From positions 51,631 to 115,630 of the forward strand of contig JARVGK010000005.1 of assembly GCA_029762535.1 (NCBI GenBank): a stretch of 64,000 nt of DNA. Reading direction: 5' to 3'. Source of the stretch: Thermoplasmatota archaeon. GTDB taxonomy: Archaea; Thermoplasmatota; Penumbrarchaeia; Penumbrarchaeales; Penumbrarchaeaceae. Shown here in pieces: positions 26,907 through 63,939 of the stretch. The translations under genes and the position numbers were made by a program. The stretch's first letter is position 1; each line of letters opens with the position of its first letter. Below the pieces are notes generated by a model that made no database searches, had not been told where the DNA came from, and saw nothing but the letters and a program-made list of their open reading frames with translations.

Positions 26907-27030
26907 TCATATGTTATAATATTATATTAATATTGTTATAATATTTTTATAATCGCACATAATATAGACATATTCTTATAATATGTAGATAGTGAAAATA
27001 TATTAAGTTTTATAAAAATATAAAAATAGG

Positions 27031-27102
27031 TGGAGAGAGGGAGATTCGAACTCCCGTAAAGCCGATCTGCAGTCGACCGCATAGCCACTCTGCCATCTCT
27101 CC
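27031..27102 (-). tRNA. tRNA with GCA anticodon (Cys), atypical A73 discriminator
   Basis: GGAGAGA/TCTCTCC acceptor stem, anticodon arm GTCGA-CTGCAGA-TCGGC, T arm GGGAG-TTCGAAT-CTCCC, followed by ACC. Confidence 0.92.
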
Positions 27103-41583: not shown

Positions 41584-41695
41584 ACCGGTCGGGACCTTTG
41601 GATCGAAGAGCGATTCAGATTATGATCTGGTCCAAAGATGTGGAAAATCGTCCAAATAACAACACAATTTCAGATTTTTCAACAGACCGGTCCAC
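41584..41695 (+). repeat. Degenerate tRNA-end-flanked palindromic element (unit B), inverted homologue of unit A
   Basis: Ends ACCGGTCGGGA ... GACCGGTCCAC derive from the tRNA-Ala 3' end; internal CAAAGATGTGGAAAATC...GATTTTTCA aligns with the minus strand of unit A. Confidence 0.7.
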
Positions 41696-41698
41696 GAC

Positions 41699-42689
41699 TG
41701 TAGAGTACGAATATTTTTTCGCAAGCCACTGTGACTCATCATGACATCCCCCAAAGTAGACCCAGAATGCTCCCTGGCTGGTTCTTTCTCCAGACAGCAT
41801 CATCCGGACACTCACCGATTTCCAACCACAAAGCCCCATGCAACCTTCTATTATACCAGACTATGAATTCATCCAAGGATCCAAATGTCCATCGATGCTT
41901 ATCGTATTCCAGCCAGAACCGTTCCAACTTGCCATTCGTCTGAGGATTGTTTCTCCTTGAAGGAATATATCGGATTCCCTTCTCGATCAACATAATCTGG
42001 AACTTCGAAAGACCGCCATGCACGTTGTAAAACTGGGTACCTCGATCGGTATTCACTTCACGGATGATCGCATTGTAAACCCTGGATCTATCCTCGGCTT
42101 GTTTGAACGTCCCAATGGAATGTTCCATAGTCGCCTCATTGAACTCCGCTCCAGCAAGGACGAACCTCGATGCGTCATCTAGCCAGATTATCACATGAGG
42201 ATGCTCTTCGGAAGTGCGATGCCAGTCACCATGAATAAGACTGAACGAATGCTCTCTCTCATATCTGCATCTCCTCCTCTTTTTCTGTTTCTTGGGGTTC
42301 GGCATGGTATTGCCACTCTTGACCATGTAAGCGTGTATCTTGTGAAGCGGTATCTTGTTACCTTGGCTCTTCAGCTCATGAAATATCATCCTTGATCCAA
42401 ATCGCTTCTCCTTCCAGGTATTGTCAATGAGCTCCTTTTCTTTTTGTGTAAGAGGGCTGGCCTTGGGCCTTCTGTTCTTCTTCAGCTTAGGGATCGTCCT
42501 TGTCTGGGTATATGAACGTACCACTTGCTCTACTCTCCTGACGGAAATGCCATAGATCTGTGCCACCTTGTTTTTGTCCCAGTCCTTGAGATCCACGATA
42601 TGGCGGCACATCCATCGGATCTTCTTATCCGATAGTTTGGTCATTTCCCCGGAGTGTTCTTCATCGCGAAATAATTTCTGTACTCTACA
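41699..42689 (-). mobile_element. IS481-family insertion sequence, 991 bp, with 15-bp target-site duplication
   Basis: TIRs TGTAGAGTACGAATATTTTTTCGC / TGTAGAGTACAGAAATTATTTCGC (TGT...ACA ends); flanking direct repeat AGACCGGTCCACGAC at 41684-41698 and 42690-42704. Confidence 0.92.
41739..42644 (-). CDS. IS481-family DDE transposase (301 aa)
   Basis: N-terminal HTH; IHGDWH, LDDASR, TDRGTQF, NPQTNGKLERF, YN..R.H; start MTKLSDK at 42644, inside the TIR boundary. Confidence 0.92.
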   Translation of the reverse strand: MTKLSDKKIRWMCRHIVDLKDWDKNKVAQIYGISVRRVEQVVRSYTQTRTIPKLKKNRRPKASPLTQKEKELIDNTWKEKRFGSRMIFHELKSQGNKIPLHKIHAYMVKSGNTMPNPKKQKKRRRCRYEREHSFSLIHGDWHRTSEEHPHVIIWLDDASRFVLAGAEFNEATMEHSIGTFKQAEDRSRVYNAIIREVNTDRGTQFYNVHGGLSKFQIMLIEKGIRYIPSRRNNPQTNGKLERFWLEYDKHRWTFGSLDEFIVWYNRRLHGALWLEIGECPDDAVWRKNQPGSILGLLWGMS

Positions 42690-42725
42690 AGACCGGTCCA
42701 CGACAAAAAATAATGAATAATTAAA

Positions 42726-42839
42726 GTGGACCGGTCGGGATTTGATGCATGAAAAATCCCTTTGGGATTTTCCGCATCCTTTGAACTCGACATTGTCGAG
42801 TTCTTCAGGAACCCAAGGGTTCAAATCCCTCCGGTCCAC
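42726..42839. repeat. tRNA-end-flanked multi-hairpin palindromic element (unit A, 114 bp; MITE/REP-like)
   Basis: Terminal IR GTGGACCGGTCGGGATTTGA / TCAAATCCCTCCGGTCCAC enclosing hairpins AAAATCCC-TTT-GGGATTTT, GAACTCGACA-T-TGTCGAGTTC and AACCC-AA-GGGTT. Confidence 0.85.
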
Positions 42840-42884
42840 GATACTATTTTAACTTCTTTTCGCTTACATTCAATAGTATAAGAG

Positions 42885-42958
42885 TGGACCGGTCGGGATT
42901 TGAACCCGAGGCCTCTCGCATGCCAAGCGAGCGATCTACCGGTCTGATCTACCGGCCC
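42885..42958 (-). tRNA. tRNA-Ala(GGC)
   Basis: GGGCCGG/CCGGTCC acceptor stem with G3:U70, anticodon arm CTCGC-TTGGCAT-GCGAG, T arm TCGGG-TTCAAAT-CCCGA. Confidence 0.97.

Positions 42959-63863: not shown

Positions 63864-63939
<76 letters not shown>

Follow-up and report, generated by a model that had tools for sequence, protein, structure and literature searches.

Downstream of a tRNA-Ala(GGC) gene in an uncultured Thermoplasmatota archaeon lie two gene-less, hairpin-rich stretches of DNA, here called units A and B, and the question that this locus raises is what kind of element they represent and how they came to stand there. The locus was noticed in a stretch of 64,000 nucleotides (the window), in a preliminary description that read it as a mobile or recombination-site family at tRNA 3′ ends.

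The array behind tRNA-Ala(GGC)

The array is anchored at the tRNA-Ala(GGC) gene (42884-42958, minus strand; ARAGORN, and Rfam tRNA at 64.7 bits), whose last 20 nt (42884-42903, minus strand) are the sequence copied in the units. Read in the tRNA sense, and with an insertion sequence (IS) and one copy of the 15-bp repeat flanking it removed, the locus consists of the tRNA gene, a 44-nt spacer, unit A (114 nt), a 24-nt spacer and unit B (112 nt); reading of the sequence bears out the coordinates and layout that had been proposed. At its start each unit carries the tRNA 3′ end as an inverted copy, and at its close as a direct copy. The exact 11-mer GACCGGTCCAC has four copies in the window, all within the 1.3-kb locus, compared with 0.61 in shuffled sequences, and the earlier count of five tRNA-tail motif copies is correct with the IS removed, the raw sequence containing a sixth that the IS has made.

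The 44-nt spacer (42840-42883, minus strand) is AT-rich and does carry the inverted repeat claimed for it, 8 nt in length (42841-42848 and 42872-42879); there is no T5 run directly 3′ of the tRNA. Unit A (42726-42839) is a type-1 module (type-1 profile, E 6.5e-26) composed of an inverted acceptor and inverted T-arm (42839-42817), a V hairpin (42803-42783), a G hairpin (42778-42744) and a direct copy of the tRNA tail that is identical at 20 of 20 positions (42745-42726), all on the minus strand. The spacer between A and B (42705-42725, minus strand, with its other 3 nt at 41696-41698) is T-rich in the tRNA sense, includes a T6 run, and is homologous to the trailer of tRNA-Ala(TGC) on contig C14. 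Unit B (41584-41695, or 41584-41698 with the adjoining 3 nt) is a decayed type-2 module (type-2 profile, E 4.2e-11) with an inverted acceptor arm (41695-41685), the two arms of a G′ hairpin (41680-41673 and 41649-41642), a V′ hairpin (41636-41595) and a truncated tail copy (41594-41584) that stops 4 nt short of the end of the tail motif, again all on the minus strand.

The IS (41699-42689, minus strand; located by repeat search and Pfam rve) is 991 bp long with 24-nt terminal inverted repeats, and contains an ORF for an rve-type DDE transposase of 301 aa (41739-42644, minus strand), the Pfam rve match of which (E 1.9e-6) lies below the curated cut-off. Its point of insertion is the 5′ arm region of unit B, and it is surrounded by the 15-bp direct repeat AGACCGGTCCACGAC (41684-41698 and 42690-42704), consistent with a target duplication of the IS that added the extra copy of the tRNA-tail motif. 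Partial copies of the IS occur on contigs C23 and C9, and it is no part of the repeat system.

Unit B had been described as an inverted, diverged copy of A along its length. This holds for the interior, where the minus strand of A aligns with the plus strand of B at a score of 28 that none of 500 shuffles reached (A minus against B minus gives no alignment above shuffles; p 0.36), but not for the 3′ tails, which align in the same orientation; the cores of the two units are mutually inverted and their outer polarity is equal. The type-2 profile matches B on the tRNA strand (E 4e-11) and also matches A on the opposite strand (E 1e-9). Unit A is intact and unit B is decayed: the predicted fold of A is a closed four-way junction, with z-scores against shuffles of -9.8 (sense) and -7.3 (antisense) as RNA and of -8.5 and -6.6 as DNA, and the fold of B is not clearly better than that of shuffles (RNA z -0.7 and -2.4). 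A full-length copy of A, 84% identical, lies behind tRNA-Ala(CGC) on C21, and 82% identical copies of its core, with different arms, are found on C102. Between the Ala-GGC and Ala-CGC units the same position differs in both arms, each matching its own tRNA.

The main rival to an inserted DNA element sees in the units structured RNAs that are transcribed along with the tRNA, like the tRNA-linked repeats of E. coli; here the tail copies would form an acceptor-like closing helix, RNase P/tRNase Z or other tRNA-end enzymes would excise the unit, and unequal crossing-over would enlarge the arrays. We think this unlikely, although several aspects of the locus agree with it: the units begin right behind the tRNA and always keep its polarity, no T5 terminator separates tRNA-Ala(GGC) from A and the T6 run follows A, and A folds best on the tRNA-sense strand (-62.6 versus -59.2 kcal/mol).

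A family of modules at tRNA gene ends

Related units whose arms match their own tRNA had been anticipated beside other tRNAs, and many such tRNAs were found across the genome. Direct tail copies are present downstream of 20 of the 40 tRNAs and head copies upstream of nine, and an inverted T-arm/acceptor copy occurs at about 23, at +20 to +65 nt (p ≤ 0.005). The modules recur behind about half of the genome's tRNAs and are 110-190 nt long; the type-1 profile has 22 matches and the type-2 profile 35, some of which are opposite-strand cross-matches on type-1 units, and nearly all of these matches lie directly downstream of tRNAs. A module is bounded by two copies of the T-loop-to-3′-end of its local tRNA, one inverted and the other direct, and its interior contains two or three hairpins (V and G) with covarying stems, the core being found in either orientation within one outer frame. 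Interiors fold with a mean z of -4.3, and 18 units include 16 distinct V stems, individual columns showing several types of Watson-Crick pair. The family also occurs in other families of the same class (the EX4484-6 lineage).

The sense strand is the more stable in 15 of 19 type-1 units, and the antisense strand folds better in 13 of 16 type-2 units. This energy bias between strands is modest and tracks core orientation, and G.U counts are not decisive. Not every G hairpin has the conserved G.T, and a strict palindrome pattern for this hairpin proved too narrow to be useful. Circular permutation of the type-1 and type-2 spacer modules, suggested by eye, was rejected, as pairwise BLAST gave only a 9-nt match (E 0.45), and so was a general rule that the proximal tail copy is perfect and the distal one decayed, since mismatch counts follow unit type and not rank.

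The co-transcribed RNA draws support from the stem covariation, from an architecture conserved across families of the class, from the sense-strand preference of type-1 units and from the precedent of E. coli, where the final 18-19 nt of each unit repeat the 3′ end of the preceding gene exactly and transcripts are processed (PMC8144298). It is less easily reconciled with a core that occurs in both orientations and with the antisense preference of type-2 units, with the T5 runs that stand immediately 3′ of many tRNAs, with spacers in which no tRNA-like promoter motif was seen by eye, and with one relative in which tRNA-Ala(GGC) is without any unit; moreover, processing requires a stem and not a match to the local tRNA. 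Nor is there a match to an Rfam family, as a search of the locus and four other arrays returned only tRNAs, with no match to RtT (RF00391) or to RrA/B/F at E ≤ 1, and weak matches far below thresholds to an H/ACA-like family (23 bits, E 0.44) and to miRNA hairpins.

The arrangement of the arrays bears on another explanation, that they are by-products of replication and repair, built by tandem duplication and by T-arm template switching with nearby inverted copies, and with hairpins kept by palindrome-templated correction, neither a dedicated machinery nor a function being involved. The presence of arrays upstream as well as downstream of tRNAs is in keeping with this, as are the non-integer copy numbers (several arrays terminate in a partial type-1 unit, and some tRNAs have a partial unit only), the near-identical neighbouring units at Arg, Glu and Pro, inversions of the tRNA-plus-array segment between genera, and the lack of an enzyme described below. 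We nonetheless judge it improbable: a shared core, with V, G and the loop motif TTTGACGAT, stands behind tRNAs whose acceptor stems are unrelated and recurs in a second family of the order, stem covariation extends over long divergence, and neutral copies such as B lose the fold.

Proposed addition of modules and the search for an enzyme

Unit B and the adjoining spacer share 91% identity across 98 nt with the sequence that immediately follows tRNA-Ala(TGC) on C14, where a B-type unit directly abuts the tRNA in this same genome, and A therefore looks like a 158-nt insertion (spacer plus A) with a 20-nt duplication; the comparison of empty and filled sites would fit a deletion between direct repeats equally well. 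Variation in unit number had been predicted between strains, and we observe it between related genomes, where tRNA-Ala(GGC) is followed by 0, 1 or 2 units; a metagenome scan for strain variants of the locus returned three contigs, none of them a near-identical strain. The proposal that the newest unit stands beside the tRNA is supported for this locus only, by the decay of B and integrity of A and by the direct abutment of B-type units on tRNA-Ala(TGC) and, in other genera, of type-2-like units on tRNA-Ala(GGC).

A search for an enzyme that might move the modules gave largely negative results. The 93%-complete genome has no match to a Y1 HUH nuclease (Y1_Tnp, PF01797), for which control genomes were positive, and an RVT_1 reverse transcriptase and an SSV-type integrase are likewise absent from it. 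A casposase (solo Cas1 with PolB) was not found, the genome's single Cas1 being CRISPR-linked, with a 91-aa ORF behind it in the place expected of Cas2 and then a CRISPR array with 36-nt repeats. The sole full-length tyrosine recombinase is a XerA-like protein of 266 aa, encoded ∼21 kb from the nearest array and scoring below the cut-offs of both models applied (IntI, 187 versus 265 bits; XerA, 185 versus 220), and there is no cognate integrase at the tRNA-Ala(GGC) locus. One further gene, Xer-like and partial, is the neighbour of tRNA-Trp on C53 only; it occurs sporadically across the class (5 of 37 genomes). The preliminary description had proposed that the units go together with one particular tyrosine recombinase or HUH nuclease, and no such association emerged.

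Cargo genes between tail copies, also anticipated, are present at one other array, behind tRNA(CAU) on C29, where a P-type ATPase (metal-pump) gene is bracketed by exact 14-nt tail copies; no long-range tail copies were found behind the tRNA called Ile(GAT). The cassette argues against a co-transcribed RNA and would fit units that are relics of tRNA-integrating elements, either remnants of attL/attR arms or cis-mobilisable mini-elements of T-loop tyrosine integrases. Such relics would also suit the direct copy, which spans from T-loop to 3′ end, the usual extent of a T-loop att site, and the Xer-like integrase fragments that adjoin tRNAs in genomes G000 and G019. We give this explanation very little credence; it demands that over 20 tRNA specificities share a single arm architecture, with integrase genes all but missing (the candidate being that found in 5 of the 37 genomes), the upstream head-copy arrays misfit, strong covarying hairpins are atypical of att arms, and two exact-pattern scans of viral contigs showed no link, with no match to the V-stem pattern and only an ordinary phage tRNA gene matching the inverted T-arm pattern.

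Folding of either strand, and a core found in both orientations, favour a DNA-level element. Tentatively, and with somewhat less than even confidence, we propose jointly that the array studied here belongs to a family of fold-back modules, gene-less and spread across the lineage, that are joined to the ends of tRNA genes, and that these are folded recombination or insertion modules, mobilised in trans and added at the tRNA 3′ end at the DNA level. Each addition would restore the tRNA tail, through duplication of ∼14-20 nt of target or through a recombination event in the T-loop, so that new modules would land beside the tRNA and older ones would be pushed outward and decay. The ancestral state here would have been tRNA-Ala followed by a B-type unit; the 158-nt piece would next have been inserted with its 20-nt duplication, and the IS would later have struck B. 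The recognised form is probably a folded single strand or cruciform, similar to attC, on which the enzyme would act in trans, and the inverted arm may stay matched to the local tRNA through pairing selection or hairpin-templated correction.

Several considerations weigh against insertion. No candidate enzyme was found in the genome; the head-copy arrays upstream of nine tRNAs are unexplained by 3′-end insertion and do not fit a purely 3′-end recombination site; more than 20 different tRNA tails would require a target-copying mechanism or many specificities; and partial units are also predicted by plain tandem duplication and decay. The earlier reading as a mobile or recombination-site family is thus strengthened on three counts (related units at other tRNAs, variable unit number and cargo) and weakened on two, the recombinase or HUH nuclease and the upstream arrays. 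A more specific version, which we consider doubtful, is a lineage-wide, gene-less insertion system that recognises tRNA ends, is self-tailored to them, inserts beside the tRNA while regenerating its tail, and may capture genes, driven by a host or unrecognised enzyme; its modules would pair with, or copy, the local T-loop-to-3′-end.

Relationship to known systems and implications

In E. coli, repeats linked to tRNA genes date back in the literature to 1978 and still await an explanation. They include the 178-bp repeats of tyrT (RtT) and rrA, rrB and rrF behind 5S rRNA, which are gene-less, occur in one to five tandem copies at many loci, and have a function that is unknown or only partly known (PMC8144298). 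The archaeal units share with them a gene-less unit immediately behind a tRNA, in the same orientation and in tandem, with a tail copy, and appear to resemble the same principle in richer form, with an inverted tail copy, a multi-hairpin core in both orientations, head-copy arrays upstream, occurrence at about half of the tRNAs and, once, cargo. There is no sequence or Rfam relationship, and the likeness is one of kind and not of descent.

Integron attC sites are similar in being imperfect palindromes (∼60-140 nt) of conserved structure and variable sequence, with inverted terminal core sites that match the anchor, a closing stem with asymmetric bulges, arrays stacked at one anchor, occasional cargo and recognition in trans, the last as proposed for the archaeal units. 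They differ in that there is no IntI with its additional domain here, most archaeal units have no ORF whereas cassettes mostly have a promoterless one, the anchor is a tRNA tail differing at each locus, and core orientation varies. The REP/BIME-RAYT and IS200/IS605 palindromes are likewise short, gene-less, clustered and often alternating hairpins, believed to be mobilised in trans in the form of folded single strands, but the archaeal genome has no Y1 HUH, and its units are tied to tRNA ends and not spread between genes, with ends that copy the local target.

Direct repeats of the 3′ part of a tRNA, from the T-loop, flank the inserts of tRNA-integrating elements, which, as in tandem accretion and with cis-mobilisable elements (CIMEs), may be added repeatedly at one tRNA, and similar repeats accompany casposons, whose target duplications are 14-15 bp. 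In contrast to these elements, the archaeal arrays have no linked integrase or solo Cas1, and their units are short, highly folded and carry an inner inverted tail copy. The inverted arms and duplicated tail also recall a MITE, but the copies stand almost only at tRNA ends and their arms change with the target.

The principle of copying a tRNA tail is now seen in an uncultured archaeal class, with mirror-image arms, covarying hairpins, both core orientations, arrays on both sides of tRNAs and occasional cargo. With half of the tRNA genes affected, it bears on tRNA annotation, through the partial copies, on the assembly of metagenome-derived genomes, as arrays break or gap contigs (assembly gaps lie within those on C21 and C23), and on local genome rearrangement, through the tRNA-plus-array inversions. 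As so many diverged copies exist, comparative genomics and RNA or end mapping could put the question to the test. The modules may indicate a novel route by which DNA insertion is directed to tRNA genes and, should the self-tailoring insertion system prove true, it would be a tRNA-anchored archaeal counterpart of integron attC and REP biology, and could explain the tRNA-linked repeats of E. coli.

Architecture and proposed history of the tRNA-Ala(GGC) array

The window is part of contig C58 in a metagenome-assembled genome of 2.96 Mb (93% complete) whose nearest named relatives are MAGs of the EX4484-6 lineage (Thermoplasmatales/Thermoplasmatota). Read in the sense of the tRNA, tRNA-Ala(GGC) (42884-42958, minus strand) is followed first by a 44-nt spacer and then by unit A (42839 to 42726); a second spacer, T-rich and 24 nt long, leads on to unit B (41695 to 41584). 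A 991 bp insertion sequence (IS; 41699-42689) splits the junction of the 24-nt spacer and the 5′ arm of unit B; it has 24-nt terminal inverted repeats and encodes a 301-aa rve-type DDE transposase (Pfam match at E 1.9e-6, short of the curated cut-off), and its other copies in the assembly are partial only (C23:570-806 and C9:65885-66279). An unusually long 15-bp direct repeat on both sides of the IS is consistent with a target duplication and provides one additional copy of the tRNA-tail motif. With the IS removed, the preliminary description was correct in counting five copies of this motif in alternating orientation. The 64-kb window holds four copies of the exact 11-mer tail motif, every one of them at this locus, against a shuffle expectation of 0.61, and the array is confirmed to be far from a chance observation. 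The window has two other tRNAs: near tRNA-Cys (27029-27102) there are neither tail nor inverted copies, and tRNA-Val(CAC) (63864-63938) is only 62 nt from the end of the contig, which leaves too little flank to judge.

Unit A opens with the acceptor 3′ strand and T-arm copied in inverted orientation; a 9-bp hairpin (V), a second hairpin (G) and a direct copy of the tRNA tail (20/20 nt identical) follow in that order, and the predicted fold of the unit is a closed four-way junction. It folds better than shuffled sequences both as RNA (z -9.8 sense, -7.3 antisense) and as DNA (z -8.5 and -6.6); the tRNA-sense strand of unit B does not (z -0.7), and the tail copy of B is truncated. Profile searches place A and B in different unit families, type-1 and type-2 respectively, both on the tRNA strand, and the type-2 profile also matches the opposite strand of type-1 units, A among them. 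The interior of A aligns with B in inverted orientation only, with a score reached by 0 of 500 shuffles (direct p 0.36), and the tail ends of the two units align directly. The earlier proposal that B is an inverted copy of A is therefore right for the core, as the profiles also indicate, but not for the outer frame, in which the T-rich spacer and inverted arm precede the core and the direct tail comes last, with the same polarity in both units.

Unit B and its spacer are 91% identical over 98 nt to the DNA directly after tRNA-Ala(TGC) on C14, a tRNA that shares its last 30 nt with tRNA-Ala(GGC) and serves here as the paralogous empty site. In other genera one or two type-2-like units, or none, directly follow tRNA-Ala(GGC); variation in unit number had been predicted, between strains. 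The simplest reading of these sequence comparisons is a three-step history, in which a B-type unit would have stood directly behind tRNA-Ala, a 158-nt segment of spacer plus A would next have inserted at the end of the tRNA, duplicating 20 nt, and B would finally have decayed and been struck by the IS. The same pattern would arise if the other loci had undergone deletion between direct repeats, and the empty-site comparison is thus support for this insertion history, not proof of it. The expectation that the newest unit lies next to the tRNA holds here, with A intact, B decayed, and B-like DNA directly behind tRNA-Ala(TGC).

A family of units tailored to tRNA genes

Half of the tRNAs predicted by ARAGORN (20/40) have one to four direct downstream copies of their own last 16 nt, with periods of ∼100-190 nt, and ∼23 of the 40 are followed, at +20 to +65 nt, by their own T-arm or acceptor in inverted copy (p ≤ 0.005 versus shuffles); direct upstream copies of the first 18 nt, with periods of ∼165-177 nt, accompany 9/40. 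The type-1 profile has 22 matches in the genome and the type-2 profile 35, the latter including some opposite-strand cross-matches to type-1 units. Nearly all lie directly behind tRNAs, and the few orphan arrays are at contig starts or behind an intron-bearing tRNA-Ser. The profile matches and tail copies bear out the prediction that the units recur behind many tRNAs, and local tailoring had been foreseen as well: the units of tRNA-Ala(GGC) and tRNA-Ala(CGC) are 84% identical, and one acceptor position, the same in both arms, distinguishes them, each unit matching its own tRNA there, and units on C102 combine a core 82% identical to that of A with arms that fit a different acceptor stem. That unit arms follow the local tRNA holds on these sequence comparisons.

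Type-1 units present, in a shared order, an inverted T-arm, the V hairpin, the G hairpin, whose base is GGAAAA/TTTTCC, and a closing T-loop strand. The V stem covaries strongly (18 units have 16 distinct stems, and the columns each show several kinds of Watson-Crick pair), and unit interiors fold with a mean z of -4.3. The same architecture recurs in another family of the order, behind 3 of the 10 tRNAs examined there, and in a third family of the class 3 of 14 tRNAs have tail copies behind them. The exact type-2 V-stem sequence is restricted to 6 of the 24 genomes in the family to which the window belongs.

The orphan array at C102:368-810 comprises three units, two type-1 and one type-2; a TATA-like motif, with no tRNA body, immediately precedes its first tail copy, and its tail sequences differ among themselves. 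A run of short G-type hairpins (GAAAAATC...GATTTTCC) at C61:1-300 lacks tRNA-tail copies, showing that the G hairpin exists outside tRNA arrays too. Runs of N interrupt tRNA-linked arrays at C21:19530-19630 and C23:22800-22900, making their unit counts uncertain; these repeats evidently hinder assembly.

Orientation, cargo and candidate enzymes

Core orientation, strand stability, inversions and cargo (below) all bear on behaviour at the DNA level. The core is found in both orientations and both strands fold, the more stable strand tracking the core and not the tRNA (type-1 sense in 15/19, type-2 antisense in 13/16). Inversions relative to the flanking genes distinguish the tRNA-plus-array segments of different genera. 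At two tRNA-Ala(GGC) loci of related MAGs (L084 and L094) the promoter-tRNA-array segment is inverted against the neighbouring gene by comparison with a third (L093), and the junction carries a decayed tRNA-Ala 3′-half fragment beside that gene's stop codon. The alternative that the units act as RNA, co-transcribed with the tRNA, stands. It or plain duplication is favoured by the outer polarity of the units, which always follows the tRNA, by the lack of a T5 run between tRNA-Ala(GGC) and A (a T6 run comes after A), by the arrays upstream of tRNAs, and by the partial units that often terminate arrays.

Cargo between units, also anticipated, is occasional: at tRNA(CAU) (C29:1-4400) exact 14-nt tail copies bracket a P-type ATPase gene (702 aa) together with a 90-aa ORF. 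A type-2 unit accompanies the copy on the far side, and a HicB-like antitoxin gene comes just past it.

The recombinase or HUH partner predicted for the array was not found. The genome (93% complete) lacks a Y1 HUH transposase, a reverse transcriptase and an SSV-type integrase. It has two tyrosine recombinase genes, one for a XerA-like protein and the other a partial Xer-like gene (C53:7237-8098) of a family sporadic in the class (5/37 genomes). The partial gene points towards the 3′ end of an intron-bearing tRNA-Trp at a contig end and is probably the edge of an integrated element; this site adjoins tRNA-Arg(TCT). The sole Cas1 belongs to an adaptation module (C5:61000-66800), where a 555-aa Cas1-containing ORF adjoins a CRISPR array with a 36-nt repeat and ∼40 spacers; a 91-aa ORF occupies the position of Cas2 and is a candidate for it.

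Relation to known systems

Readings as REP/RAYT, IS200/IS605, casposon or classical integrase elements each fail on a defining feature. The likeness to attC sites is functional only, residing in folded palindromes with inverted cores that match their anchor and are stacked at one site; there is neither an integron integrase nor regular cargo here. Our literature search found no description of such tRNA-linked arrays in archaea, and a paper on prokaryotic tRNA gene fragments is limited in scope to integration remnants and CRISPR spacers. Overall, the interpretation in the preliminary description is partly supported.

In E. coli, tRNA-linked repeats are gene-less units behind a tRNA or rRNA gene that end in 18-19 nt of the gene's 3′ end; ten loci together have 22 units, most of whose function is unknown (PMC8144298). 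The archaeal units share this defining tail identity without any sequence or Rfam relationship, and have in addition an inverted arm, a common hairpin core that covaries and occurs in two orientations, arrays upstream of tRNAs, and cargo.
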